Assembly (NCBI GenBank): GCA_903919145.1 | Contig: CAIXGW010000063.1 | Span: 8,253-72,252, forward strand | Length of the DNA: 64,000 nt | From: an uncultured Myxococcales bacterium | GTDB lineage: Bacteria > Myxococcota_A > UBA9042 | Reading direction: 5' to 3' | Shown: positions 5,753 to 54,185 of the stretch, piece after piece | How the letters are laid out: each line of letters starts with the position of its first letter | Position numbering within the stretch: the stretch's first letter is position 1 | The notes under the pieces: generated by a model | The model's input: only the letters and a program-made list of their open reading frames with translations | The model's database searches: none | Told to the model about the DNA's origin: nothing | Translations under genes and position numbers: made by a program

Positions 5753-6646
5753 ATGAGCGCTCTTGCCAACCTGAACAAGTCCCCACTGCCCCCACGGCCC
5801 ACGGCTCCGACTGGGCTGGACAGAACTGAGCTGGGCAGGAATGAGCTGGGCAGGAATGAGCTGGGTAGGAATGAGCCGGATAGGAAGGAGCAGGGCAGGA
5901 ATGAGCCGGAAATCCTGAGCCGCGAAAGCCGCTTGGATGACCTGCGCCACCGCCTCAAAGGGATGCCCGGTGGGCAGATGACCAGCGCCCAGGGCAGCAC
6001 TCAGGGCAGGGTGACCCTTGCAGAAGAGGGTATTTCTCCAGAGGAATTGGCCGGCCGCCTGATCGAGGTCAGCGATCCAGGGCAGGGGGCGGATCAGCTG
6101 GGGGCCTCGACCTCTTGGGCCGCCGCGCGGGTGGCAGAGGCCCATCGGCGGGGAGACACGGCCGCGTGGATCTTGTGCAGTGCAGACGATGCCAGGCGCG
6201 GCCAGCCCTATCCACCGGATCTGGCAGAGCAAGGCATTGACCTGGCCGCCCTGCCCATCGTGTGTGCCCGCGACGGCCCGGCGGTGCTGCATGCCGCGGA
6301 TGTGCTGCTGCGCTCAGGAGGTTTTGGCCTGGTCATTGCCGAGTGGCCCCACGGGGTAGATCGCCCCTCTGAGGGGGCGCTGGGGCGGCTGCTGGGCCTG
6401 TGCCAAAAGCACGACGCGGCGCTGCTGTGGCTGACCGACGGCAGCCAAACCGCCGAGGGCGGGCGGATGGGCTCCCTGATTTCGCTGCGCTTGGAGGCGG
6501 GGCGCCAGCCCTACCAGCCGGATCGCGGTGCAGACCGGCTGGGGCCTGGGCTGCTGCGCTTGAAGCTGACCGTCCGCAAAGACAAACGCCAGGGCCCCGG
6601 CCGCACCAGCCTGGAGCTGCGCCGCGCCCCCCTGGGGATCTGGTGA
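5753..6646 (+). CDS. imuA: ImuA-like SOS mutagenesis protein (RecA/SulA-fold, inactive)
   Basis: It follows a LexA box and precedes imuB with a GTGA overlap. The C-terminal 200 aa (AAWILCSADDARRG..GFGLVIAEWP..ALLWLTD..LLRLKLTVRKDKRQG) resemble ImuA. The start is uncertain: leaderless ATG at 5753 or the internal Met at 5963. The N-terminal region contains an (L/P/Q)(G/D)R(N/K)E pentapeptide repeat. Confidence 0.65.
   Translation: MSALANLNKSPLPPRPTAPTGLDRTELGRNELGRNELGRNEPDRKEQGRNEPEILSRESRLDDLRHRLKGMPGGQMTSAQGSTQGRVTLAEEGISPEELAGRLIEVSDPGQGADQLGASTSWAAARVAEAHRRGDTAAWILCSADDARRGQPYPPDLAEQGIDLAALPIVCARDGPAVLHAADVLLRSGGFGLVIAEWPHGVDRPSEGALGRLLGLCQKHDAALLWLTDGSQTAEGGRMGSLISLRLEAGRQPYQPDRGADRLGPGLLRLKLTVRKDKRQGPGRTSLELRRAPLGIW
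5816..5905 (+). repeat. Six tandem copies of a 15 bp unit CTGGGCAGGAATGAG inside the imuA 5' region
   Basis: Direct reading: ctggacagaactgag / ctgggcaggaatgag x2 / ctgggtaggaatgag / ccggataggaaggag / cagggcaggaatgag. The period is 15 bp, so the repeat stays in frame. Confidence 0.85.
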
Positions 6647-8313
6647 ATTCTACAGAACAAAGCCCTCTCCCTGGCCCAGCTCCAGGGCTGGCATGCGCCT
6701 ATCTGCCTCACTTTGCCCTGCAATTGCTGGGGCGCCGCGACCCGGCCTGCCTGCAGCACCCCGCGGTGGTGGTGAGCGAGGATCGTCCGCAAGGGCTGGT
6801 GCGCGAAGCCAATCGCCTGGCCCAAGCCGCGCGGATCCTGCCGGGGATGCGCTATGCCGCGGCGCTGGCCCTGTGCGCCGACCTGCGCGCTGGCGTCATC
6901 GAAGAAGAGCAAGAGCTTGCCGCCGCTGGCGAATTGGTCGAGCGGTTGCGCCGCCTGTCGCCGCGGATCGAGCCAAGCTCAGAAGAGCCCGGCGTCTTCT
7001 GGCTCGACACTTCTGGCCTAAGCGGGCTGTGGCCAGACCTGCAGCGCTGGGCCGAAGCCGTGCGCGACGAGCTGGCGGTGGCTGGCCTGGTCGGCGCGGT
7101 GGCCATAGGCTGGTCGCGCTTTGCCGTCTATGCGATAGCCCGCCAGCTGCGCGGGGTGTTGCTGCTGGCTGATCCTCAAGAAGAAGCCCAGCGGCTGGCC
7201 CAGGTGCGGCTGGCGGCGCTAGGTGCAGCACTGGGTCTGCCCCCAGGCCTGCGCGACACCCTGGCGCTGCTGGGCATCCACACCCTGGGCCAGTTCTTGC
7301 GCCTGCCGCCTGAAGATTTGCGAGAGCGCTACGGCAAACCTGCCTGGCTGCTGCACTGCCGCGCCCGCGACCAGCTGACCGAGCCGCTGCGCCCCGACCT
7401 GCCAGCGCCGCCGCTGCAGCTGCACCGCGACGTGGAGCCCCCCGACGACCAGCGCGATCGCCTGCTGTTTATCGCCAAAGGGCTGCTGGTAGAGCTGCTG
7501 AAAACCGCAGCAGCGCAGCACAATTCCGTTGCCGTGCTGCACCTGCGGCTAGAGCTGGAGCGGCCATGGCGCAACCGCCAGCGCGACAGCTCCGCCCCGG
7601 CGCCCCGCCGCGACAGCGCTACGCCGCCTGGGCTGCCTGACGCTCAACTTATCAATACACAAGTACAAACTGCCGAGCCCAGCCTCTATGAGCCCCAGTG
7701 GATCGACCTGCTGCGGCTGCGCCTGGACGCCCTGGTGTTGCCGGCGCGGGTAGAGCGCTTGGGCCTGCGGGCCCAAGTGGTGCCGGCCACCGCCCATCAG
7801 CTGCGGCTGTGGCAATTGCTGGCCGAAGCGGGGGGGCTGGCGCGCCGCGACCTGCTGGCGGCCACAGAGGCTTTGACCAAGCTTGGCGCGGCCTTGGGCG
7901 ACCACGCCGTGCTGCGCGCTGAGCCGCGGCCGGCCCATCTGCCAGAAGCGCGCTTTCGCTGGCTGCCCTGGCAGGGCCCTCTGCCGGCGGCGCGGGTGCC
8001 CCAGCCCCAGGATCAGCTGCCAACTCAACACTCTGCCCAGCTATTGCCGCCGCGCCCGCTGATGCGCCGCTGGTTCAGCAAGCCGCAGCCGCTGCCCTCG
8101 CGGCCCAAGCACGAGCCCGACGGCTGGCTGCTCGCCGACTGGCGGCAGGGGGCCGTTGCCAAGCTGTGGGGACCGTTCAAGCTTTCTGGAGGTTGGTGGA
8201 CCCGCGAGGTGCGCCGCGACTACTGGTACGTCTTGACCGAGCGCGGCGACCTGCTGTGGGTCTTTTACGACCACGTGCGCAAGCTATGGTTTCTGCAAGG
8301 CATTGTCAGCTAG
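6643..8313 (+). CDS. imuB: ImuB, a Y-family DNA polymerase-like protein
   Basis: GTG at 6643 overlaps the imuA stop (GTGA). The N-terminus ACAYLPHFALQLL..AVVVSED.. is the DinB/ImuB-type palm start, with a long non-catalytic C-terminal extension. 556 aa. Confidence 0.8.
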   Translation: MNSTEQSPLPGPAPGLACAYLPHFALQLLGRRDPACLQHPAVVVSEDRPQGLVREANRLAQAARILPGMRYAAALALCADLRAGVIEEEQELAAAGELVERLRRLSPRIEPSSEEPGVFWLDTSGLSGLWPDLQRWAEAVRDELAVAGLVGAVAIGWSRFAVYAIARQLRGVLLLADPQEEAQRLAQVRLAALGAALGLPPGLRDTLALLGIHTLGQFLRLPPEDLRERYGKPAWLLHCRARDQLTEPLRPDLPAPPLQLHRDVEPPDDQRDRLLFIAKGLLVELLKTAAAQHNSVAVLHLRLELERPWRNRQRDSSAPAPRRDSATPPGLPDAQLINTQVQTAEPSLYEPQWIDLLRLRLDALVLPARVERLGLRAQVVPATAHQLRLWQLLAEAGGLARRDLLAATEALTKLGAALGDHAVLRAEPRPAHLPEARFRWLPWQGPLPAARVPQPQDQLPTQHSAQLLPPRPLMRRWFSKPQPLPSRPKHEPDGWLLADWRQGAVAKLWGPFKLSGGWWTREVRRDYWYVLTERGDLLWVFYDHVRKLWFLQGIVS

Positions 8314-9121: not shown

Positions 9122-10090
9122 TCAGACAGTCGCAAAGTCCTGAAACAGCACGCTGGACAGGTAGCGCTCGCCAGCGTCCGGCAGCACCGTGACAATGCGC
9201 TTGCCCTTGTTCTCTGGACGCGCCGCGACCACCAGCGCCGCCGCCATGGCCGCACCGCAGCTGATGCCCACGGTGATGCCTTCTTCGCGGTGCAGGCGCC
9301 GCGCGGTCGCCACGGCGGAGTCATTGCTGACCGTCACCACTTCGTCAACCAGGTCCAGGTCCAAGACATCCGGCTTGAACCCGGCGCCGATCCCCTGGAT
9401 CTTGTGCGGCCCCGGCTTGGGCACCTGACCGGCCTTGATGGCCGTCAGCACCGGCGAATCGGCAGGCTCTACCGCGATGATCTGGACCTTCTTTCCCTTG
9501 CTGTTGAGGTAGCGCGCCACCCCGGTGATGGTGCCGCCGGTGCCCACGCCAGCTACAAAAATGTCGATCTCGCCATCGGTGTCGTTCCAGATCTCCGGGC
9601 CGGTGGTGCGAAAGTGGATGTCGGGGTTGGCCGGATTCTTGAACTGCTGCGGCAGGAAGTAGCGGCTGGGGTCCGAGGCGACAATCTCCTCGGCCTTGGC
9701 AATGGCCCCGGGCATGCCGCGCGGACCTTCGGTCAGCACCAGCTCCGCGCCAAACGCCAGCAGCATGCGCCGCCGCTCGATCGACATGGTCTCTGGCATG
9801 GTCAGGATCAGCGGGTAGCCGCGCGCCGCAGCCACATACGCCAGCGCAATGCCGGTGTTGCCGCTGGTCGGCTCGACGATGGTGACATCCCGCGAGCCGG
9901 GCTTGAGGAGGCCGTCGCGCTCGGCGGCCCAGATCATCGCCGCGCCAATCCGGCACTTGACCGAGTAGGCCGGGTTGCGCCCCTCAATCTTGGCCACAAT
10001 TTCCGCGCCCAAGCCTGCCGAAATGCGATTCAACCGCACCAGGGGGGTGTTGCCGATGCTCAAGCTGTTGTCATCAAAAATTCGCGCCAT
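9122..10090 (-). CDS. cysK: Cysteine synthase A (O-acetylserine sulfhydrylase)
   Basis: 322 aa. The PLP-lysine region SVKCRIG, TSGNTG, GTGGT and the overall sequence match CysK closely. Confidence 0.9.
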
Positions 10091-10220
10091 GTCTGCCTCT
10101 CAGCCCCCATCAGGGGCGGGAATGTCTAGCCAAATCAACGCACCGCAAAGTACCACTTGAACGCAAAGCCTCCAAATTCGATCGGGGCTGCGACCAGACC
10201 GCCCGGCACCCTGGGCTGCC

Positions 10221-10360
10221 CAGTGCCTCAAACCCCAAGTTTGTTCCGGGTTCCGGAACGGACCCGGTTTGGGGTACGGAAGAAGACCCAGCAGTAGGAC
10301 CCAAAACCTGTGAACAAGAACCGGGGGCAACCCAGATCGAATGAGCGGTCTTGGGTACTA
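10221..10360 (+). mobile_element. MITE-like 140 bp dispersed element, copy 1, including flanking TA
   Basis: About 88% identical to the reverse complement of 32343-32482. The right terminus is GGGTAC-TA. The left terminus is degenerate (caGTGCCTC versus taGTACCCC). It contains the internal palindromes GTTCCGG/CCGGAAC and CCAAACCCC/GGGGTTTGG. The TA at 10359-10360 is part of the rrf2 stop codon. Confidence 0.7.
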
Positions 10361-10786
10361 GATCGAAAAATCCACCTTTCCAGCCCCAGAGTCTGCCCTG
10401 AGCGCCACGTCTTCCAGCGTGGTGCGCTCCAAAATCGCCCGGATCGCCTGCGCCCACTCGCCACTCATGGCCCGCGCAGCGGCCATCCCATCGTCGCCCG
10501 TGGCCACCGGCTCTTCGCCGATCTGCAAAGGCCCGTCGGCGGCTTCCACCACCTCCAGCACCCGAATCGCCGCCAACGGCCGCGCCAGCAGGTGCCCGCC
10601 ATCCGGCCCGCGGCGGCTGTCGATCAGGCCGGCCAGGCGCAGATCCGCCAGCAGCGACTCCAGGACCTTGTGCGGCACAGCCAGGGCGGCGGCCACGTCC
10701 TGCAGCCGCACGCGGCCCCCAGGCGCTTGCCGACCGAGCAGCACCAAAGCGGCCAAAGCCTGTTCTGTTCGGTGAGAGATGCGCAC
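10358..10786 (-). CDS. Rrf2-family transcriptional regulator (IscR/CymR-like)
   Basis: 142 aa. MRISHRTEQALAALVLLG.. is a typical Rrf2 N-terminal HTH. It lies immediately upstream of cysK on the same strand. The stop TAG is shared with the MITE terminus. Confidence 0.8.
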   Translation of the reverse strand: MRISHRTEQALAALVLLGRQAPGGRVRLQDVAAALAVPHKVLESLLADLRLAGLIDSRRGPDGGHLLARPLAAIRVLEVVEAADGPLQIGEEPVATGDDGMAAARAMSGEWAQAIRAILERTTLEDVALRADSGAGKVDFSI

Positions 10787-27037: not shown

Positions 27038-27054
27038 GGGCGTCCTCTCATGAT

Positions 27055-27140
27055 GGGTTTAAGCGGGCAAAGTGGGTTCAAGCGGGCAAAGTGGGTTCAG
27101 GCGGGCAAAGTGGGTCTAAGCGGGCAAAGAAGGAGCAGGC
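27055..27140. repeat. Tandem 21 bp direct repeat (about 4 units) immediately 5' of the ATP-grasp gene start/RBS
   Basis: Minus-strand reading: cttagacccactttgcccgc / ctgaacccactttgcccgc / ttgaacccactttgcccgc / ttaaacccatcatGAGAGGacgcccATG. Each unit carries a TTGAAC-like hexamer. Confidence 0.75.
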
Positions 27141-27317
27141 GGGCAGGGGCCCGCAGAGGGCAAGCAGGCGGTGCAAGCCAGAGTCACAAGTCCCAAAGGA
27201 TCCGGCAGTTGCAGGGCAATGGCTCCAAGCGATCCAAAGGGCGGCTGCGGGCGTGCATCGTAAGGGATTTGCCAGAATCTGGCTACCGCACGCCGACCCG
27301 TCCCAGCGAGCGGAAAC

Positions 27318-31769: not shown

Positions 31770-31934
31770 GGCCCCTGCGCCGCGCCGCCCGTGCGCGCCT
31801 GGGCCCCAGTGTAGCCGCAGTAGCGGGCCGCGTCTCGGCTGTTGGGCCCCGCGTCGCCACAGCCGCGCTTGCGCCGCCGCCAATGTCGGACTAAAATGGT
31901 CCGCGAATGGGCCGACGGCCCTGCAGGTGAATTC

Positions 31935-32345
31935 ATGGGCGGCGTCAATCCTTATGTTCGCACCAGCTCTGTGCCGCTGCCGACCCGGCCCTACCGGATC
32001 ACCGTGGCCGGCACAGGTCAGGTCATTGAAGTCCATCCAGAAGAGCTGCCGCTTGGCCGCGATGGCCGGCCAGGATCGCTGCTGGATGTCTTGCTGCACC
32101 ACGGCGTCAAGGTCGACCACGCGTGCGGCGGTGTGGTCAGCTGCTCTACGTGCCATGTGATCGTTCGCAAGGGTCTTTCTAGCTGCAATCCCGCCGAAGA
32201 GGCCGAAGAGGACATGCTCGATACGGCGCCCGGTCTGACCCCGCAGTCGCGCCTGTCTTGCCAGGCCGTGCCAAACGGCTCGCAGGACGTGGTGGTCGAG
32301 ATCCCGGCGTGGAACCGCAACCAGATCAAAGAGTCTGATTTCTAG
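31935..32345 (+). CDS. fdx: [2Fe-2S] ferredoxin, ISC/adrenodoxin type
   Basis: 136 aa. DHACGGVVSCSTCHVIV, EDMLDTAPGL..SRLSCQA and VVEIP align with E. coli Fdx. The stop TAG at 32343-32345 lies in the MITE terminus. Confidence 0.8.
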   Translation: MGGVNPYVRTSSVPLPTRPYRITVAGTGQVIEVHPEELPLGRDGRPGSLLDVLLHHGVKVDHACGGVVSCSTCHVIVRKGLSSCNPAEEAEEDMLDTAPGLTPQSRLSCQAVPNGSQDVVVEIPAWNRNQIKESDF

Positions 32346-32482
32346 TACCCAAGGCCGTTAATTCGATCCGGGTTGCACCCGGTTCTTGTTCACGGGCCTT
32401 GGCTACTACTACTGGGTCTTTTTCCGTACCCCAAACCACCTCCGTTCCGGAACCCGGAACAAACTTGGGGTTTGGGGTACTA
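32343..32482 (-). mobile_element. MITE-like 140 bp element, copy 2 (best preserved), TA-GTACCC...GGGTAC-TA
   Basis: Perfect terminal inverted repeat TCTAGTACCC/GGGTACTAGA. It is the reverse complement of copy 1 at about 88% identity. TA dinucleotides flank both ends. It sits between the fdx stop and the cyaY RBS. Confidence 0.75.
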
Positions 32483-32506
32483 GAGTGTTGTCGCCAGGAG
32501 CCCCCG

Positions 32507-32836
32507 ATGGACGAGCTGATGTTCCGCCAATACACCGACCGCCTCTACCGCGCGGTGCTGCAGCGCCTGGACCGCGAAGATCCCGATGTCATTGAAGGGG
32601 AGCTGTCGGCCGGGGTCGTCAAGATCCGCAATGCCGCCGGCCAGATCTATGTGCTGAACCACCAGGTGCCGGTCAGCGAGATCTGGTATGCCGCGGGCGA
32701 CCGCGCCTGGCACTTCCAGCACCAGACCGATGGGCACTGGCTGGACCCGCGCAACGGCGAAGAGCTGGCCGCCGTCCTGGGCCAGACCCTGAGCCGACTC
32801 GCCGGCATTCCGCTGGAGTTTGACATCCCGCAGTAG
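32507..32836 (+). CDS. cyaY: Frataxin homolog CyaY (iron-sulfur cluster assembly)
   Basis: ATG at 32507, 8 nt after AGGAG. MDELMFRQYTDRLYRAVLQRLD..IYVLNHQVPVSEIWYAAGDRAWHF..GHWLDPRNGEEL matches the CyaY/frataxin fold sequence. Confidence 0.8.
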   Translation: MDELMFRQYTDRLYRAVLQRLDREDPDVIEGELSAGVVKIRNAAGQIYVLNHQVPVSEIWYAAGDRAWHFQHQTDGHWLDPRNGEELAAVLGQTLSRLAGIPLEFDIPQ

Positions 32837-34620: not shown

Positions 34621-35810
34621 GCCAGGAATCGGGGGACCACGCGCAAGCGCTTGGGCTTTGGCGGATGCAGGTTGCCGAGCTGCTGGACCGCCCCGAGCGG
34701 CTGCAGCTGCAGCTGCGCGATGTGCGCAGTGCCGGCTTGGGGCTGGCGGACCAATGGCCTGCGGATTTTGACAGTGTCTGCGCGGCGTTGTGGCGAAGCT
34801 GCGACGGCGGCGGTCGGCGCCTGGTGCTGCTGCCGCTGCTGGAGGGGCACGCCCTGGGCCCAGCGCTGACCCAAGCCATGCTTAGCAGCGTAGAGGGGCG
34901 CGAAGAGCGATCGGCCAACGCCGCCCTGGCATTGCTGGACGAGCGCGGGCAGCTCGATCCTTCGCAGTGGCGCCGCGTGGCCGCCGTTGCCCGCGCCCAG
35001 CGCCAGGCACTGCTACCCGACATCGATGCCGTACAGCTTCTGGCCCGGCACGGGCCCCCTGAGGCCATGGCCACCGTGGCCCTGACGGCCTTTCGCCTGG
35101 GCCCAGAAGACGCCGATGACCGCCTGACCTGCCTGGCTGGGCTGGGCCGGTTTGCCGACCCGCGGATCCTGCCGTGGCTGCAGGCTCTGGCCCGAACCGG
35201 CTCGGCCGGCCTGGAAGTGCTTCAGGCCGCCGCCCAGATCATGGCGCGCGAGCCAGAAGCGCCGGGCCTCGCCGAGCTGCTGCTGGAATTGGCCAGCGGC
35301 GAAGCTGGGCTAGATGCGTTGCTGCGCTGGTCTGCGTTAGACGGCCTCTGCCACTTGCAGGGCGCTGAGGCACTGCCGGCCCTGCTGGCGGCCCACGCGG
35401 CGGCCGGCCAAGACCTGCCTGCCTGGTACCTGCCCATGCTCGCCGGCCGGGCCTTGGCCCTGGAACCCAGCCTGGCCAAAGGCGGTCCCGCGGCGCTGCA
35501 CCTGGCGGCAGTGGCTCTGCAAGTGCCAAGCTGGCCGCCGGTTCCGGGCTTGGACCAGCGCGCCCTTTCTCGCGATGCGCGGGTGGCCCGCCAGGCCGCC
35601 TTTGAGCAACCAAGCCCCAGCCCTGATGTATTGCGCCAGCGCGCTGGCATGGAGGCCGCGCTGGTCGCCCGCCACCAGCTGGTGGGCAGCCTGCTGCCAG
35701 AGGCGCCGGCAAAAGCCCTGCCGGTCGAGTTCGCCGCCAACTGGGCCAGCATCACCGAAGAAGAGCGAGACCTATTGCTCCGCCAGGAGGCTATCTGGCT
35801 GCAGGGCTAG
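34617..35810 (+). CDS. Hypothetical Ala/Leu-rich helical-repeat protein
   Basis: ATGA overlap with the upstream gene. GC3-rich frame. No recognised domain. Confidence 0.45.
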   Translation: MSQESGDHAQALGLWRMQVAELLDRPERLQLQLRDVRSAGLGLADQWPADFDSVCAALWRSCDGGGRRLVLLPLLEGHALGPALTQAMLSSVEGREERSANAALALLDERGQLDPSQWRRVAAVARAQRQALLPDIDAVQLLARHGPPEAMATVALTAFRLGPEDADDRLTCLAGLGRFADPRILPWLQALARTGSAGLEVLQAAAQIMAREPEAPGLAELLLELASGEAGLDALLRWSALDGLCHLQGAEALPALLAAHAAAGQDLPAWYLPMLAGRALALEPSLAKGGPAALHLAAVALQVPSWPPVPGLDQRALSRDARVARQAAFEQPSPSPDVLRQRAGMEAALVARHQLVGSLLPEAPAKALPVEFAANWASITEEERDLLLRQEAIWLQG

Positions 35811-35925
35811 GAATTGCAGCGCACAAGGGCGCCGCTGTGGAACTCGCTGGTTGCCGGCGGTGCGCATATTTCGCTATGCTGCACGCAGTGGACCCTGCCT
35901 TGGGTCAGTTTGGGTGGTCGCGCTG

Positions 35926-38900
35926 ATGGGGTTCCCGCTCGGCTTTGAGGCACTGCGCCGCTATGACGCTCTGGCCGGTCGGGCTGTGCATGGCGTCGTC
36001 GTGGCTTGCCGCGGGCGATCGCCGGTCAGCGCACTGGCGCGGCTGGCGAGGGTGGCGGCAGCGGCGATGGCTGTGCTAGTGCTTGGCGGCTGCCTGGAGA
36101 CCGAGTTTGGTCCGGCCCTGACCGACAGCGCCAGTCCCGCCGACGACCAGGGCAGCAGCTCTGGCGATGCACCCACCGACAGCACCCGAATTGACAGCCA
36201 ACCCGCAGACACCGCCCAAGACAGCTCTGGCACTGCCGACGCGGGCCAGACGAAGTGCCCTGGCAGCCCGGGCTGCCCCTGCGCCATCACCCAGGACTGC
36301 GGCGCAGGAGCCTGCCTGGTGACCGCCAATGGCAAGCGCTGCGCCGCCTTCTGCATAGAGGGCAGCTGCGACGTGGGGTCGACCTGTGGCGCCGTGGCGG
36401 TCGAAATTCCGGGCGCGCCCACGGCAACCAAGTTCGGCGTGTGCCTGCCGCGCTGGCCCACTGACTGCGTGCCGTGCCTTGGCAACTCCGACTGCGCCAA
36501 CCCGGCCGACGCCGCGGCCGCCTGCGTCGATCCTGCCGGCGGCGACGGCGCCAACGGCTGGTTTTGCGCCTCCTCTTGCAAGCAGGACGCCGACTGCGCG
36601 CCAGGGCGCACCTGCAAAACCCTCAAGGGCCTGGACGGCAGCATGCACCAGACCTGTGCGCCAACCTCAGGCCAGTGCGCCTGCTCTCCGCTGGCCGTGC
36701 AGACGGCTGCCGCCACTTCCTGCCGCAAAACAGCTGCGGGCATGGGCGTTTGCAAGGGCCTGCGCAGCTGCTCCAGCGGTGCGCTCAGCGCCTGCTCAGC
36801 CCAGACTCCCCTCCCCGAAGCCTGCAACGGCCTGGACGACGACTGCGACAGCGCCGTAGACGAGCCGATCGACGCCACGCCGCTGTGCGCCGACCAGGAG
36901 CCGTGCACGGCAGAAAGTTGCCAGGGATCCAAGGGCTGCGCCTACCTGCCCGTCAGCGTAACCTGCAGCGATGACGACCCCTGCACCAGCGGAGACAAGT
37001 GCGGCAACGGCAAATGCGCTGGCGGTCCAGCCAACTGCGACGACAACAACCCCTGCACTACTGATTCTTGCGCCAGCGAAACCGGCTGCACTTATGTGGC
37101 CACTGCCGGCCCCTGCCACGACGGCGACAAGTGCACCAAGGGCGACGTGTGTGCTGCCGGCGAGTGCGCGTCAGGCCCCGCACTGAGCTGCGACGACGCC
37201 AACCCCTGTACCAACGACTGGTGCGACGCGCTACAGGGCTGCACCTCCCTGCCCAATGACGTCACCTGCACCGACGGCAACGAGTGCACCGGTGTGGACA
37301 CCTGCAAGTCGGGCAAGTGCAGCGGCCCACTGCTGGCCTGCGACGACGGCTGGGGCTGCACTTCAGACAGCTGTGACCCGCTTGCCGGCTGCGTTTTTGC
37401 CTCTGGCCAGCCCAGCTGCGGCCAGGCTCCCATGCCTTATGCCATCGCCATGGACTGCACCGAGACCGCGTTCAGCAGCTGGCGGGTGTCGGCCCCGGGC
37501 ATCGCTGTTGCCGATCCGCAGCCGCCGCTGGTCGCCTGGAAGCTCGACAATCTGCCTCCCTTGGGCGGCACCAGCCAGTGCGCCCTCAATGTCAACAACG
37601 GCAAGGATCTGGCGTGCGGCTTCTTGCAGACGTCGGTCGATGCGTGGGCAGAATCTCCATGGATTGGCCTGACTTCTGTGACCCCAGAGGCTCCGGTGGT
37701 GCTGCGCATGGAGAGTGCCGGCTTCTGGTCCAGCAGCTGGACCGCCAAGATCCTGGTCAGGCAAGAGAACCAGCCGTGGAAAGAGCTGGGCAAGCCCTCG
37801 GCCTCTGGCGCCATCTGGGGCAAGGTCACCGTCGATGTGCCAGAGCTGGCCGGCAAGATGGCGCAGATCCGCTTTCAGTTTTCTGGCAGCGACTGTGCCG
37901 ACAGCGACGGCACCGGCTGGTACGTCCGCAAGGTCTCTTTGGCGGTCGAGCCCTGCGCCAAGAACAACGGCGGCTGCGCACCCACCGCCACTTGCAGCGC
38001 CGGGCCCAACAACAGCGCGGTGTGCGCCTGCAATGCGGGCTACAGCGGCACGGGCAAGATCTGCAGCGACATCAACGAATGCGCCAAGAACAACGGCGGC
38101 TGCGCGGTCGGCGCCACCTGCACCAACAGCATCGGCAGCTTCTCTTGCGGCTGCAAGCCGGGCTTTCAGGGCGATGGCGTCACCTGCACCGACATCAATG
38201 AATGCGCCACCGGTAAGGCCAATTGCGCCGTAGACGCGCTCTGCACCAACACCTCTGGCAGTTTTGTCTGCTCGTGCAAGCCCGGCTACACCGGCAACGG
38301 CAAAATCTGCACCGACATCAATGAATGTGCCTCTGCCAACGGTGGGTGCGCGGTCCAGGCTACCTGCACCAACCTTCCGGGGTCGATGCAGTGCGCCTGC
38401 AAGGCGGGCTACACCGGCACTGGCAAGACCTGCACAGACGTCAACGAGTGCACCACCGTGGGCCTGGCCGACTGCGCCACCGAGGCGACCTGTACCAACA
38501 GCACCGGCTCGTTCAGCTGCGCCTGCAAGCCAGGCTACTTGGGCAACGGCAAGTCGTGCGTGCTCTACGGCAGCGCCGAGCTACCCGCTTCGACCTGCAA
38601 GTCGATCCAGTTGGCCAATCCCGCTACAATCTCTGGCCCTTACTGGCTCAACCTTGCCGGTTCGACGGTCCAGGTCAACTGCGACATGGTCACCGACGGC
38701 GGCGGCTGGACCCTGGTCGGCTACAAGACCGACCTGACCCTCAAGGTCAACAACACCAAGTGCTGCAGTGAGAGTTGGCTAATCAGCGACTTTGCGACGT
38801 ACTTGACGGCCGTTCAGATCAAAGCCCTGCAGTCCCTTTCTACAGAGGGCAGACAGACCTACGTGGGGCAGTGCGTCAAGTTTGCCCACTACGAATACAA

Positions 38901-39153
38901 CAGCGGCAATTTCAACCGCGCTATCGGCTTTCGCTTCGCCGATGGTTCCGTAAGCGTCAACGGCCTCAAGAGCTACCTGCCTTTGGACATCAGCGTGCCG
39001 GTTGACGAGTGCAAGGCCTTGTCTTCGCTGCCCGCCACCACCCAGTTTGTCATCCATTCCGTCAAGGTACCGGTAGTCAACATCCTGACCGACTTCCAGG
39101 GCAACGGCCAGTTCGGTTCTCAGTTGACCAAGCAGCCGGCCATGCTGCGGTAG
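35926..39153 (+). CDS. Large secreted lipoprotein: myxobacterial Cys-rich repeats, five tandem calcium-binding EGF-like domains, and a fibrinogen-C-like motif
   Basis: Lipobox VLVLGGC. Repeated CDDxNPCTxDxC modules. The cbEGF domains recur five times: CSDINECAKNNGGCA..C.C..GY.G.G..C. A later ..SGPYWLNLAGSTVQVNCDMVTDGGGWTLVGYKT matches the fibrinogen-related-domain core CDMDTDGGGWTV. The start is uncertain (35926 ATG or a downstream GTG). GC falls to about 57% over 38.0-39.15 kb. Confidence 0.65.
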   Translation: MGFPLGFEALRRYDALAGRAVHGVVVACRGRSPVSALARLARVAAAAMAVLVLGGCLETEFGPALTDSASPADDQGSSSGDAPTDSTRIDSQPADTAQDSSGTADAGQTKCPGSPGCPCAITQDCGAGACLVTANGKRCAAFCIEGSCDVGSTCGAVAVEIPGAPTATKFGVCLPRWPTDCVPCLGNSDCANPADAAAACVDPAGGDGANGWFCASSCKQDADCAPGRTCKTLKGLDGSMHQTCAPTSGQCACSPLAVQTAAATSCRKTAAGMGVCKGLRSCSSGALSACSAQTPLPEACNGLDDDCDSAVDEPIDATPLCADQEPCTAESCQGSKGCAYLPVSVTCSDDDPCTSGDKCGNGKCAGGPANCDDNNPCTTDSCASETGCTYVATAGPCHDGDKCTKGDVCAAGECASGPALSCDDANPCTNDWCDALQGCTSLPNDVTCTDGNECTGVDTCKSGKCSGPLLACDDGWGCTSDSCDPLAGCVFASGQPSCGQAPMPYAIAMDCTETAFSSWRVSAPGIAVADPQPPLVAWKLDNLPPLGGTSQCALNVNNGKDLACGFLQTSVDAWAESPWIGLTSVTPEAPVVLRMESAGFWSSSWTAKILVRQENQPWKELGKPSASGAIWGKVTVDVPELAGKMAQIRFQFSGSDCADSDGTGWYVRKVSLAVEPCAKNNGGCAPTATCSAGPNNSAVCACNAGYSGTGKICSDINECAKNNGGCAVGATCTNSIGSFSCGCKPGFQGDGVTCTDINECATGKANCAVDALCTNTSGSFVCSCKPGYTGNGKICTDINECASANGGCAVQATCTNLPGSMQCACKAGYTGTGKTCTDVNECTTVGLADCATEATCTNSTGSFSCACKPGYLGNGKSCVLYGSAELPASTCKSIQLANPATISGPYWLNLAGSTVQVNCDMVTDGGGWTLVGYKTDLTLKVNNTKCCSESWLISDFATYLTAVQIKALQSLSTEGRQTYVGQCVKFAHYEYNSGNFNRAIGFRFADGSVSVNGLKSYLPLDISVPVDECKALSSLPATTQFVIHSVKVPVVNILTDFQGNGQFGSQLTKQPAMLR

Positions 39154-42143: not shown

Positions 42144-42710
42144 CTACTCCGCCCCCGGCTTGAACAGCAGCGCGTCTCCCAGCGGATACGTTTCCAGCTT
42201 GGCGTAGCGGGCCCCCTCTTCGCCGGGCGTGCTGGAATACAGGTGGAATTCAGAGACTGTCCACGGCTCGGTGCGCAACAGCGAGTGGGCCGCCAAGAAG
42301 CCCGCCACGTCGCCATCGGCCGCCCGCTCCAGGCGGGCCAAGCTGATGTGGGGCGCAAAGTTGCGCTTTTCTGGCGGGGCCCCTGCGTGGCGCACCAGAT
42401 GCTCCACCCGCGCTTGCAGGCGCTCAAGCGGCGGACTCGGCGCGGTGCCAGCCCACAAAGAGTGCGGGCGCCCGCGCGGCGGAAAGTGGCCTACCCCAAG
42501 AATCTGCAGAGAAAACTCGGGCAAGTGAACCAGTTGCAGCGCTTCGTCGACCTCTCTGGCCAAGCTGGCATCGGTGGGGCCCAGAAAGCGCAGGGTCAAG
42601 TGCAAGTCATCGGGGTGCACCCAGCGCGCCCCTGGCAGAGGTCCATAGAGATCAATTAGTTGGTCGCTGATGGCGTCAGGCAGGCTGAGGCCAATGAACA
42701 GACGGATCAT
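42144..42710 (-). CDS. thpR: RNA 2',3'-cyclic phosphodiesterase ThpR/LigT (2H family)
   Basis: 188 aa. Two H-x-T/S-x motifs (HLTLRFLG, HISLARL) at the canonical spacing. Confidence 0.8.
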   Translation of the reverse strand: MIRLFIGLSLPDAISDQLIDLYGPLPGARWVHPDDLHLTLRFLGPTDASLAREVDEALQLVHLPEFSLQILGVGHFPPRGRPHSLWAGTAPSPPLERLQARVEHLVRHAGAPPEKRNFAPHISLARLERAADGDVAGFLAAHSLLRTEPWTVSEFHLYSSTPGEEGARYAKLETYPLGDALLFKPGAE

Positions 42711-42799
42711 GGGGACCTAGGGGCCTCGACAAAGACCGGTCGATCTGCTGTCGGGGTGGCGACGCGTTTCCGCGGCAATGAGCTTGGCGAACCGGCTGG

Positions 42800-42935
42800 C
42801 ACCCAAACCCGCAGTCCGGTGTGGAAGCCGCAGCCGACTTGGTTAGGGGGTGTGGGAGAAGACCCAGCAGCAGCCAAGACCAGCGAAGAACAGCCAGGTG
42901 CCATCCGGATCAAACTGGCGGTCTTGGAGACTGGC
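42800..42935 (+). mobile_element. Degenerate third copy of the MITE-like element
   Basis: cacccaaacccgcagtccggtgtggaagcc..gggagaagacccagcagcagccaagacc..ggtcttggagactgg aligns along its whole length with copy 1, at roughly 65-70% identity. It lies between the CHAP gene stop and the thpR start. Confidence 0.5.
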
Positions 42936-42973
42936 AGCGCAAGGGCCACCAAAGAAGGATGGCTGCTGGTGAC

Positions 42974-43924
42974 CTAGGCCACTTCTCCAAAGCCGAAGAT
43001 GGTCTCCATGCCGCGGACTTTTTGGTAGACGCCTTCTTGGCCGCGGTCGCGTGGATTGGCGGTGTTGCCTTCGATGGTGGTGATCGACCCGTCGGCATTG
43101 ACGGCTTTGACGATGCCCACGTGGTCGGGGTTCTTGTCGTGGTCCCAGTCAAAAAAGACCAGGTCGCCGGGCTGCGGGTCGTTCTTGCCCTTCCAGCGTC
43201 CCTGCTTCTTGAGCTGCTGGACAAAGGTGGGGCAGTACGGGCTGTTGGTCGACTTGCCAGCCTTGCTATAGACCCAGGACACAAAGTCGGCACACCAGGG
43301 CTCTGGGCCGCGGCCAAAAAACTGCTGGTACTTAAGGGCGCCACCGCGGTTCTCGCCCTTTTCTGTGGTGCCGATTTGCGACTCAGCGACGCGCAGAATC
43401 TCTTGGCGAAGCTGAGCCTCGTCGCGCGGATTGGCCGGCGGTCGCCGCCCAGGGCGCTGCCCCGGCTCAGGCTGGGGGCGCTGGCTGCCGCCGCGCTGCT
43501 GGTCGCCACCGGGGCTGCGCTGCGGCGTGCCATATTGGGCGGTGTCCAGCTCCATGCCGCTGCGTTCGCGCAGGCCTGCCCAGGTTTGCGGACCCACAAT
43601 GCCATCGACTTCAAGGCCGCGCTTCTCTTGGAATTGAACCACTGCGCGGTGGGTGGCGGGGCCAAAAATGCCGTCTGCCGGGCCGGGAGCCAGCCCGACT
43701 TTGTTGAGCAGCGTCTGGCACATCCGCACCTCGGCCCCCGAGGAGCCGCGGCGAATCATCTTGGGCATGTGCGCCATGCCGGGGGCGACGACGCCCTGCT
43801 GGCCCTGCTGGCCCTGCGTACCTTGCCGGCCCTGGGCGCCTTGCTGGCCCTGCGCGCCCTGCGATCCCTGCTGGGGATTGCGCTGCTGACTTTGCTGGGG
43901 ACCTCTGTGGGCTGGCATCGACAA
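42974..43924 (-). CDS. Peptidoglycan-binding (PG_binding_1) plus CHAP-domain cell-wall hydrolase with an N-terminal GQQ triplet tract
   Basis: GIFGPATHRAVVQFQEKRGLEVDGIVGPQTWAGL is a PG-binding domain. The C-terminal CADFVSWVY..HVGIV is the CHAP Cys/His pair. The start is uncertain: the internal Met MAHMPKMIRRG is possible. Confidence 0.6.
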   Translation of the reverse strand: MSMPAHRGPQQSQQRNPQQGSQGAQGQQGAQGRQGTQGQQGQQGVVAPGMAHMPKMIRRGSSGAEVRMCQTLLNKVGLAPGPADGIFGPATHRAVVQFQEKRGLEVDGIVGPQTWAGLRERSGMELDTAQYGTPQRSPGGDQQRGGSQRPQPEPGQRPGRRPPANPRDEAQLRQEILRVAESQIGTTEKGENRGGALKYQQFFGRGPEPWCADFVSWVYSKAGKSTNSPYCPTFVQQLKKQGRWKGKNDPQPGDLVFFDWDHDKNPDHVGIVKAVNADGSITTIEGNTANPRDRGQEGVYQKVRGMETIFGFGEVA

Positions 43925-52396: not shown

Positions 52397-52699
52397 GCCG
52401 CGCCATCGGACATTGCCCTGGGGACTGTCCGACGGCCCGCCGTGTCGCATCGGACACTGCCCTGGGGAGTGTCCGACGGCCGCCGTGTCGCATCGGACAT
52501 TGCCCTGGGGACTGTCCGACGGCCCGCCGTGTCGCATCGGACATTGCCCTGGGGAGTGTCCGACGGCCCGCCGTGTCGCATCGGACATTGCCCTGGGGAG
52601 TGTCCGACGGCCTGCCGTGTCGCATCGGACATTGCCCTGGGGAGTGTCCGACGGCCCGCCGTGTCGCATCGGACACTGCCCTGGGGAGTGTCCGAGGGC
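52397..52699. repeat. Tandem array of seven copies of a 44 bp palindromic unit GTGTCGCATCGGACAYTGCCCTGGGGASTGTCCGACGGCCCGCC
   Basis: The hairpin cores begin at 52404, 52448, 52491, 52535, 52579, 52623 and 52667. The period is 44 bp (one unit is 43 bp). Each unit contains the inverted repeat CGGACA..TGTCCG around CCCTGGGG. Units differ only by 1-2 SNPs. There are no unique spacers. Confidence 0.9.
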
Positions 52700-53568
52700 T
52701 ACGCCACGCCCCACTCAACCGGCACCCCAACCTGCTGGCAAGACAGGCGCCACAACCGCTCGATGTCGTCGGCTCTGCCCGCCTGAGGGGCCGGCTGCGC
52801 AGGCTGCGACCGCGCGAAATACTGGCCGCTCAGCGCCTCAAGCCCGGGCGCCAGTGCGCAATACACAGATGTGGCGGCGCCTTCCTGCAAGCTGTCGGGG
52901 CCGTCCATGCCAAAGCCCTCTCGCAGCAGCTTGGTGCCCACCACGCCTGGATGCAGGCTGAAGGCGCTTAGCTGCGCCGCGTCAAAGCGCTGTGCCAGGG
53001 CGCGGGCAAACATCACATTGGCCAGCTTGGACTGGGCATAGGCGGCGTAGCCCGTCTGCTGTTGCAGGTGATCCCAGTGGATCTGCCCGCGGTTGTGCGC
53101 CACAGACGCGACCACGACCACCCGCGCCGGTGCCGAGCGCAGCAGCAATGGCAACAGCTCGTGAGTCAGCAGCAGGGGCGCCAAGTGGTTGACCTGCCAG
53201 CTGCGTTCCAGCGGATCGACCTGCCCAGTGGCGCCCCGGGCCTGCGCGGCGGCAGCGGCTGGACCGGCGGTCGAAAACACCCCGGCATTGTGAATGACCC
53301 GGTCCAACCGCGGCAGCTGTTCGACCAGTTGCGCGGCTCCGCGGCGAATCGCGGCAAAGTCGGCCAGGTCAAAGACCACCCCCTGGGGCTGGGCGCGACC
53401 GCAGAGCGCTGCGAGTTCAGCGCTCACCGCCTGAACTTTTACCCCGTCGCGACCATGCACGACCACCTGAGCGCCGCGGCTGACCAACTGGCGGGCGGTC
53501 TCGCGGCCGATGCCGTCCGTCGACCCGGTCACAAGGACTACTAGAGAAAGAGGGGTACTGCTGCTCAC
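52699..53568 (-). CDS. Short-chain dehydrogenase/reductase (SDR) family oxidoreductase
   Basis: VLVTGSTDGIGRETARQL is the TGxxxGxG NAD(P)-binding motif. The YxxxK catalytic region is present. Confidence 0.8.
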   Translation of the reverse strand: MSSSTPLSLVVLVTGSTDGIGRETARQLVSRGAQVVVHGRDGVKVQAVSAELAALCGRAQPQGVVFDLADFAAIRRGAAQLVEQLPRLDRVIHNAGVFSTAGPAAAAAQARGATGQVDPLERSWQVNHLAPLLLTHELLPLLLRSAPARVVVVASVAHNRGQIHWDHLQQQTGYAAYAQSKLANVMFARALAQRFDAAQLSAFSLHPGVVGTKLLREGFGMDGPDSLQEGAATSVYCALAPGLEALSGQYFARSQPAQPAPQAGRADDIERLWRLSCQQVGVPVEWGVA

Positions 53569-53889: not shown

Positions 53890-54185
53890 ACCGCCGGACA
53901 CCCCCAGGGGAATGTCTGATGCTTGTAGCCGTTGACGAATTTCGGACGGCCAGCAGGCGGCCCGCACCGAGAAGCCCCGTCGGACATTCCCTAGGGGAAT
54001 GTCTGATACTTGTAGCCGCTGATGAATTTTGGACGGCCAGCGTTCCGTCCCCGCCGGGCGACACCGCCGGACACTCCCTAGGGGAATGTCTGATCCTTGT
54101 AGCCTTTGACGAATTTCGGACGGCCAGCAGACGGCCCGCACCGAGAAGCCCCGTCGGACACTCCCTAGGGGAATGTCTGATCGGG
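53890..54185. repeat. Tandem array of about 3.5 copies of an 87 bp unit, each carrying the palindrome CGGACAYTCCCTAGGGGAATGTCTG
   Basis: CGGACA recurs at 53895, 53981, 54068 and 54155. The units alternate between two spacer variants, giving an A-B-A pattern. The core is related to the 44 bp unit at 52397-52699, sharing CGGACA..TGTC and a cggacggcc segment. Confidence 0.85.

Follow-up and report, generated by a model that had tools for sequence, protein, structure and literature searches.

Three copies of a short repeated element lie in the 64-kb stretch of DNA that was analysed here (the window; G+C content 67%). Copy 1 lies at 10220-10361 on the minus strand, copy 2 at 32342-32483 on the plus strand and copy 3 at 42801-42934 on the minus strand. 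Copy 2 is the best preserved and copy 3 is diverged. Copies 1 and 2 are 87-88% identical and form a 141-nt inverted pair (10222-10362 and 32341-32481) that is 88% complementary, and copy 3 shares about 69% identity with each of them. When a profile of nine family members was run against the 64-kb window, these three copies were the only matches, with E-values of 1e-44, 3e-43 and 8e-29. An earlier note on this DNA, made from the sequence itself, had described the three copies, two of them about 88% identical in inverted orientation and the third diverged, and they are present where it had placed them.

Each copy in the window sits between two genes that run in the same direction. Copy 1 is preceded by the gene for an rrf2-family regulator (10358..10786, minus strand) and followed by one for a cysK-like PLP-dependent enzyme (9122..10090, minus strand). 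Upstream of copy 2 is fdx, encoding a 2Fe-2S ferredoxin (31842..32345, plus strand; these are the limits of the longest ORF, and the start is probably later), and downstream of it is the frataxin-like cyaY (32507..32836, plus strand). Copy 3 lies between a peptidoglycan-binding/CHAP gene (42974..43924, minus strand) upstream and thpR, encoding a LigT 2',3'-cyclic phosphodiesterase (42144..42710, minus strand), downstream. All six of these flanking genes had been named in the earlier note, and Pfam matched every one.

In the window, the longest ORF for cyaY (32399-32836; 145 aa) has its TTG start within copy 2. Public annotation of the identical CyaY protein, like that of all of the listed homologs, starts at the ATG at 32507 (109 aa), and the extension to 145 aa is therefore an artefact of the element's open frame. 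ORFs or N-terminal extensions that run across the element, as in this example, should be treated with caution in annotation.

The window also holds repeats of other kinds. Two tandem arrays (52404-52699 and 53891-54182) flank a short-chain dehydrogenase gene (52699-53568, minus strand). One consists of 6.8 copies of a 44-nt unit (95% match) with the palindrome CGGACAnTGCCCTGGGGAGTGTCCG in each, and the other of 3.4 copies of an 87-nt unit with that palindrome inverted. These arrays may belong to a separate repeat family or provide a series of protein-binding sites. Shorter tandem repeats occur at 27054-27145 and 5815-5906 (19-nt units TGGGTTCAAGCGGGCAAAG, four times; 15-nt units GCTGGGCAGGAATGA, six times), and the region 35575-39153 encodes a large protein of secreted type, syntenic in the relatives, in which cysteine-rich 123-nt repeats resembling EGF_CA/cEGF are numerous.

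Anatomy and folding of the element

In copy 2, with the flanks read as a TA duplication, the core of the element is 136 bp long (32345..32480) and runs from GTACCCAAGGCC to GGTTTGGGGTAC; the distance from CTAG to CTAG is exactly 138 nt. The core has no coding capacity, in that we found no ORF with a start of its own and no Pfam or Rfam identity, and its size and lack of a transposase gene are those generically expected of bacterial MITEs (below about 300 bp). Its termini are imperfect inverted repeats of the form GTACCC(C)AARSCC, with GTACCCAAGGCC at one end set against GTACCCCAAACC, the reverse complement of the other. The first 6 nt match perfectly and about 12 of 15 match overall, again as in MITEs. 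The ends that the earlier note had given for copy 2, TCTAGTACCC and GGGTACTAGA, are real. One reading frame is open throughout the element, and the gene-sense strand of all three window copies begins CTAGTACCCAAG.

Each element carries four occurrences of the motif TAGTACCC(C)AARRCC, in the order + - + -, and the window has seven matches to it against 1.5 expected. Because the four motifs alternate in this way, each end pairs with an internal partner and not with the other end, and the element forms two independent folds of about 55-62 nt each. Hairpin A of copy 2 (32345..32406, plus strand) has an outer stem CCAAGGCC/GGCCTTGG and an inner stem-loop CCGGGTTGCACCCGG, followed by TTCTTGTTCA. A 19-nt linker, TACTACTGGGTCTTTTTCC (32407..32425, plus strand), joins it to hairpin B (32426..32480, plus strand), which has an outer stem GTACCCCAAACC/GGTTTGGGGTAC and an inner stem GTTCCGG/CCGGAAC. 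The nested hairpin reported earlier exists and corresponds to hairpin B, but hairpin A, of similar size, had been overlooked. Pairing of the ends with internal segments instead of with each other is unusual for a MITE, and counts against that assignment. Conservation of the linker extends over the close copies and copy 3 but is lower in two diverged copies described below (L121b and L124).

The folding energies of copies 1 and 2 lie far below those of shuffled controls on both strands (z of -3.2 to -8.0), and that of copy 3 does not differ from shuffles (z of +0.5 and -1.1). A 33-nt segment between copy 1 and cysK, AAAGCCTCCAAATTCGATCGGGGCTGCGACCAG (10165-10197, plus strand), weakly resembles an inverted inner hairpin A (5 bits) and may be the remnant of a second insertion, or a chance similarity.

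Dispersed copies, target duplications and empty sites

Searching 185,579 species-representative genomes for the core pattern gave 13 matches, of which two were real, in two genomes with one copy each. L001 is a Myxococcota MAG from Lake Mendota, and L002 is a MAG from Lake Erken labelled 'uncultured proteobacterium'. Their copies are 84-91% identical to copies 1 and 2, and the genes that adjoin them are unrelated. An exhaustive profile search with the element's open frame led to ORFs that had been called across four further, diverged copies. Two of these, L121a and L121b (L121, 450-591 and 853-983), lie about 400 nt apart in the same orientation within one intergenic region upstream of a DoxX gene, where the gene caller had merged them into a spurious 189-aa ORF. 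Another diverged copy, L124, is situated between divergent genes.

The remaining copy, L123 (657-799), is inserted in frame (46 codons, LVPKTAEAIRV...) in a gene for a 924-aa PilZ/Ser-Thr kinase protein (P0162), with CTAG on both sides. It occupies a disordered linker and leaves the downstream kinase domain intact; the kinase ortholog in L001, whose kinase domain is 77% identical, lacks the element. Since the element is open in one frame and an insertion adds exactly 138 nt, or 46 codons, it can survive in frame in a tolerant coding region. The description of the copies as all intergenic thus applies within the window but does not extend to the family. One more copy is known as protein only, from a DUF2330 protein (P0038) that ends 25 codons into it and that was the single match of a protein search with 897 aa of concatenated six-frame translations, a long and noisy query.

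With the three copies in the window and the six elsewhere, nine distinct copies are available as DNA, with pairwise identities of 52-91% across the family. Outside the window the copies neighbour a small membrane ORF, a GGDEF gene and a DUF2330 gene, lie upstream of DoxX, or interrupt the kinase gene; dispersal over such unrelated contexts is a property of MITEs. A JGI metagenome scan with the linker pattern GGTNNGGRARAAGACCCAGYAG yielded no copy, all 19 matches being chance, and none was found in viral contigs (linker and terminus scans) or in plasmids and phages (blastn). The known copy number in public MAGs is therefore low, which counts against the MITE reading, but it is probably an underestimate, since repeats of this sort tend to interrupt MAG assemblies. 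Copy 2 contains the ends of four short-read contigs from the same organism (CyaY 100% identical), as is expected of a repeat, and contigs do run through copies 1 and 3, which are more diverged. The element thus explains contig breaks in short-read assemblies of the source organism.

The flanks of the copies carry a putative target duplication. At copy 2, the left TA (32343..32344) is within a CTAG (32342-32345) and doubles as the TA in the TAG stop of fdx (32343-32345), and the right TA (32481..32482) is within a second CTAG (32480-32483), so that the window junction reads TTC-TAG-TACCC...GGGGTAC-TAG-AGTG. CTAG is present on both sides of copy 2 and of the copies in L002 and L123, at distances of 138, 137 and 138 nt, and in L001 one flank is CTAG and the other CTAA. 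In these four copies, then, TA within CTAG or its L001 variant borders the element at both ends, as a target-site duplication does in MITEs, and all intact copies are consistent with a 2-bp TA duplication. Copy 1 keeps its CTAG on the rrf2 side (10358-10361), where it supplies the rrf2 TAG stop; its far end has degenerated to CCAGTGCC (plus strand). The duplication has likewise degenerated in both L121 copies and in L124. Copy 3 is flanked on both sides by CCAG in the gene-sense orientation, and because this repeat is direct and not inverted, it behaves as a duplication and not as part of the inverted repeats.

Homologs of CyaY and ThpR gave us syntenic contigs of close relatives in which two of the three window positions are empty, that is, polymorphic for the insertion. 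In L038-L045 (CyaY 78% identical) the fdx-cyaY junction reads GACTAGATG, or GAC-TAG-ATG; the fdx stop abuts the cyaY start, and there is a single CTAG exactly at the place of copy 2. In L052-L055 (ThpR 73% and 86% identical) CHAP and thpR are separated by 6-7 nt, against 263 nt in the window, with junctions of TAG-CCTGTG-ATG and TAA-GCCTAAG-ATG. The proposal that the element is a MITE with a TA duplication around GTACCC..GGGTAC accordingly gains support from the CTAG flanks, from the CTAG/CTAA pair in L001 and from the two empty sites. As markers of lineage-specific insertions, such sites are useful for strain typing. In contig L037 (CyaY 86% identical), the fdx-cyaY spacer is G+C-rich, starts right after the same TTCTAG and is 138 nt long (6629-6766), coincidentally the length of one insertion; it gave no nhmmer match, and we rejected it as a diverged copy.

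The extra DNA at the CHAP-thpR position is larger than the element. As a whole it spans 42717..42977 (minus strand), has its CTAGs 257 nt apart and carries an 8-bp direct repeat, CCTAGGTC, at its two boundaries. The 257-nt insert comprises copy 3, at about 134-140 nt, and about 118 nt of unique sequence that had no match in any other sequence compared. A second, inverted copy in the DNA flanking copy 3 was considered and rejected, its local alignment scores being within the shuffle range. The MITE model does not cover these roughly 118 nt, and they count against it.

Mobilisation, stop codons and alternative readings

We consider it likely that the repeats make up a MITE family, non-autonomous transposable elements carried by a clade of uncultured Myxococcota, most of them from freshwater. 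The family is lineage-specific and apparently recently active. It is previously undescribed, although its kind is familiar; among the matches listed in a literature search on MITEs in Myxococcota, no title or abstract dealt with such a family. A DDE transposase acting in trans, most likely of the IS630/Tc1-mariner type, would bind the termini, excise the element and paste it into a TA, preferably within CTAG, with duplication of the TA. Elements of the IS630/Tc1-mariner group insert at TA and duplicate it, and the preferred target of IS630 is TA within CTAG (PMC2170065, citing Tenzen and Ohtsubo 1991). The targeting of TA in CTAG is the one observation that suggests this type of mobilisation, and a scan of 26 ORFs in the window showed no transposase domain. 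Copies in operons would presumably be co-transcribed and so place two stable hairpins in the mRNA, which may incidentally alter its stability, processing or read-through.

The target preference may also account for the association of the element with stop codons. The TAG stops of rrf2, of fdx and of the GGDEF gene in L002 fall exactly on an element boundary; that of the CHAP gene is the boundary of the larger 257-nt insert that holds copy 3, and not of copy 3 itself. Both CTAG and TA are depleted in the window, with observed/expected ratios of 0.34 and 0.45, and an element seeking TA within CTAG would have few neutral targets there besides C|TAG stops. We infer that the surviving copies are mostly at such stops because of this depletion and because insertions within genes are selected against. 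With G as its first base at either end, the element restores the TAG stop whichever way round it inserts, and the upstream protein stays as it was. The element in this respect illustrates target scarcity in a high-G+C genome, where the rarity of TA and CTAG funnels a TA-targeting element onto TAG stops.

Other transposases deserve consideration. IS5-type elements duplicate CTAG-like targets, and a MITE could have been moved by another DDE family such as this one, with a 4-bp YTAR/CTAG duplication and TACCC...GGGTA as the element. The three intact copies with a perfect CTAG on both sides, and the CTAG in the empty site of L038, fit such a mechanism. At CTAG targets, duplication of 2 bp (TA) and duplication of 4 bp (CTAG) predict the identical sequence, so only L001 discriminates between them; its CTAG/CTAA flanks call for no extra mutation under the 2-bp model and for one under the 4-bp model, which favours TA on the strength of a single informative copy. 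We think the IS5-type alternative unlikely, if the least unlikely of those weighed here. A REP/REPIN or an IS200/IS605-type single-strand element (PATE), moved by a Y1 (HUH) transposase that recognises subterminal hairpins, could explain the hairpin at each end, and the alternation in motif orientation recalls that of REPs in BIMEs (PMC2817692). Such elements would, on this hypothesis, insert beside a fixed tetranucleotide without duplicating it, and here the TA forms part of genuine inverted repeats at the ends, and TA/CTAG is duplicated relative to the empty site. Moreover, the window copies are on strands -, + and - within 33 kb, which is unexpected for lagging-strand-specific insertion, and no Y1 transposase domain is present among the scanned window ORFs. 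We hold this origin to be very improbable.

A different possibility is that a mobile element has been co-opted as a structured RNA module in operons, with one orientation kept by selection. In that role it might raise or lower mRNA stability, be processed by RNase III or RNase E, or act as a weak attenuator. There is precedent in ERIC and Correia, whose effects on the mRNA of adjacent genes depend on orientation (PMC2229807). The earlier note had gone further, reading an orientation bias as the behaviour of a transcribed RNA element rather than of random insertions. Relative to the co-directional flanking genes the orientation is indeed the same in three of three window copies, but over all six copies in co-directional contexts it is 4:2 (two-sided binomial p of about 0.7), which is not significant: copies 1-3 and the copy in L001 are sense, whereas that in L002, after the GGDEF gene, and that in P0038, into which the DUF2330 gene reads, are antisense to the upstream gene. 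This tally leaves out L121 and L124 (between divergent genes) and L123, which came from a frame-specific search. In the nine-copy alignment, 87.5% of cells in five helices are paired, and hairpins are kept even in diverged copies. Double-sided changes occur in 11 cells, against 4.9 +/- 1.9 after shuffling, a value reached by 1 of 500 shuffles, and slid controls pair far worse; related sequences that lack structure nevertheless exceed the shuffle control in 5-25% of cases. These results give modest support to the maintenance of the palindromes, as DNA for transposition or as RNA. In the four palindromic helices, where an excess on one strand would point to a strand-specific RNA, the gene-sense strand has 12 G-U pairs and the opposite strand 11; with the 4:2 orientation, this leaves the claim of a transcribed RNA element unsupported. 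A simple scan marked the inner stem-loop of hairpin A, with the TTCTTGTTCA that comes after it, as weakly terminator-like in copies 1 and 2 when read in the gene-sense direction; its T-run is poor. Rfam 15 gave no match over the whole window at the gathering score, and at a permissive E-value copy 2 drew only chance matches to miRNA hairpins, at 13-22 bits against cut-offs of 65-100. Because the sites are empty in close relatives, any RNA function would be dispensable and recent. The family does not, on these observations, behave as a strand-specific structured RNA element, and we regard the co-opted RNA module as improbable; a new biological question would arise only if a function at the RNA level were shown. 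Equally doubtful, in our estimation, is a bolder scheme in which the element is a stop-codon-seeking mobile module that regenerates TAG, splits translationally coupled gene pairs and is kept by host selection in one orientation within operons as a two-hairpin RNA processing or attenuation signal, and in which it could in addition be read as a 46-residue peptide insert in proteins. If that scheme were true, the fdx TAG-ATG cyaY pair would have been turned into two genes about 160 nt apart.

Comparison with known repeat families

Returning to the MITE reading, the bacterial MITEs RUP, Correia and ERIC are characterised by terminal inverted repeats (TIRs), TA termini, target duplications, stable stem-loops and in-frame ORF fusions (PMC2229807), and every feature of this generic class for which we tested was found in the element. 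RUP is the closest functional analogue: it is about 107 bp long and non-coding, has TIRs, and inserts at TA with duplication (PMC2229807), and its mobilisation in trans by an IS630-family transposase (IS630-Spn1) was likewise deduced from its TIRs and target (PMC2229807). There is no sequence relationship between the two. The partner IS is known for RUP, whereas we found none here, and the host of RUP is a firmicute, in contrast to the high-G+C Myxococcota that carry the present element.

Correia/NEMIS in Neisseria and ERIC/IRU in enterobacteria, at 100-160 bp, resemble the element in their TIRs, TA termini and target duplication (PMC2229807, PMC2649163). Most of their copies occupy intergenic positions inside transcription units, where they are transcribed along with the genes as stable stem-loops, and both empty and filled sites occur among relatives (PMC2229807, PMC2649163). 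Correia and ERIC are the analogues for the operon-embedded copies. They fold end-to-end into one long stem-loop, whereas the present element forms two hairpins and a linker. RNase III/RNase E processing effects and the creation of promoters have been demonstrated for Correia/NEMIS and ERIC/IRU themselves, which reach hundreds of copies per genome, compared with the apparently low number of our element in public MAGs.

For the 46-codon in-frame copy in the Ser/Thr kinase linker of L123, the analogues are the Rickettsia palindromic elements (RPE) and YPAL. These share no sequence similarity with the element, for which there is one in-frame case and one C-terminal read-in (P0038), most copies being intergenic. 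The two-part fold has its counterpart in CIR, the CcrM-associated intergenic repeat of Caulobacter and Brucella, whose halves also fold independently into two stem-loops with a linker (PMC2229807). CIR has GANTC methylation motifs and is without TIRs or a shown target duplication, whereas the element described here has clear TIRs and TA flanks.
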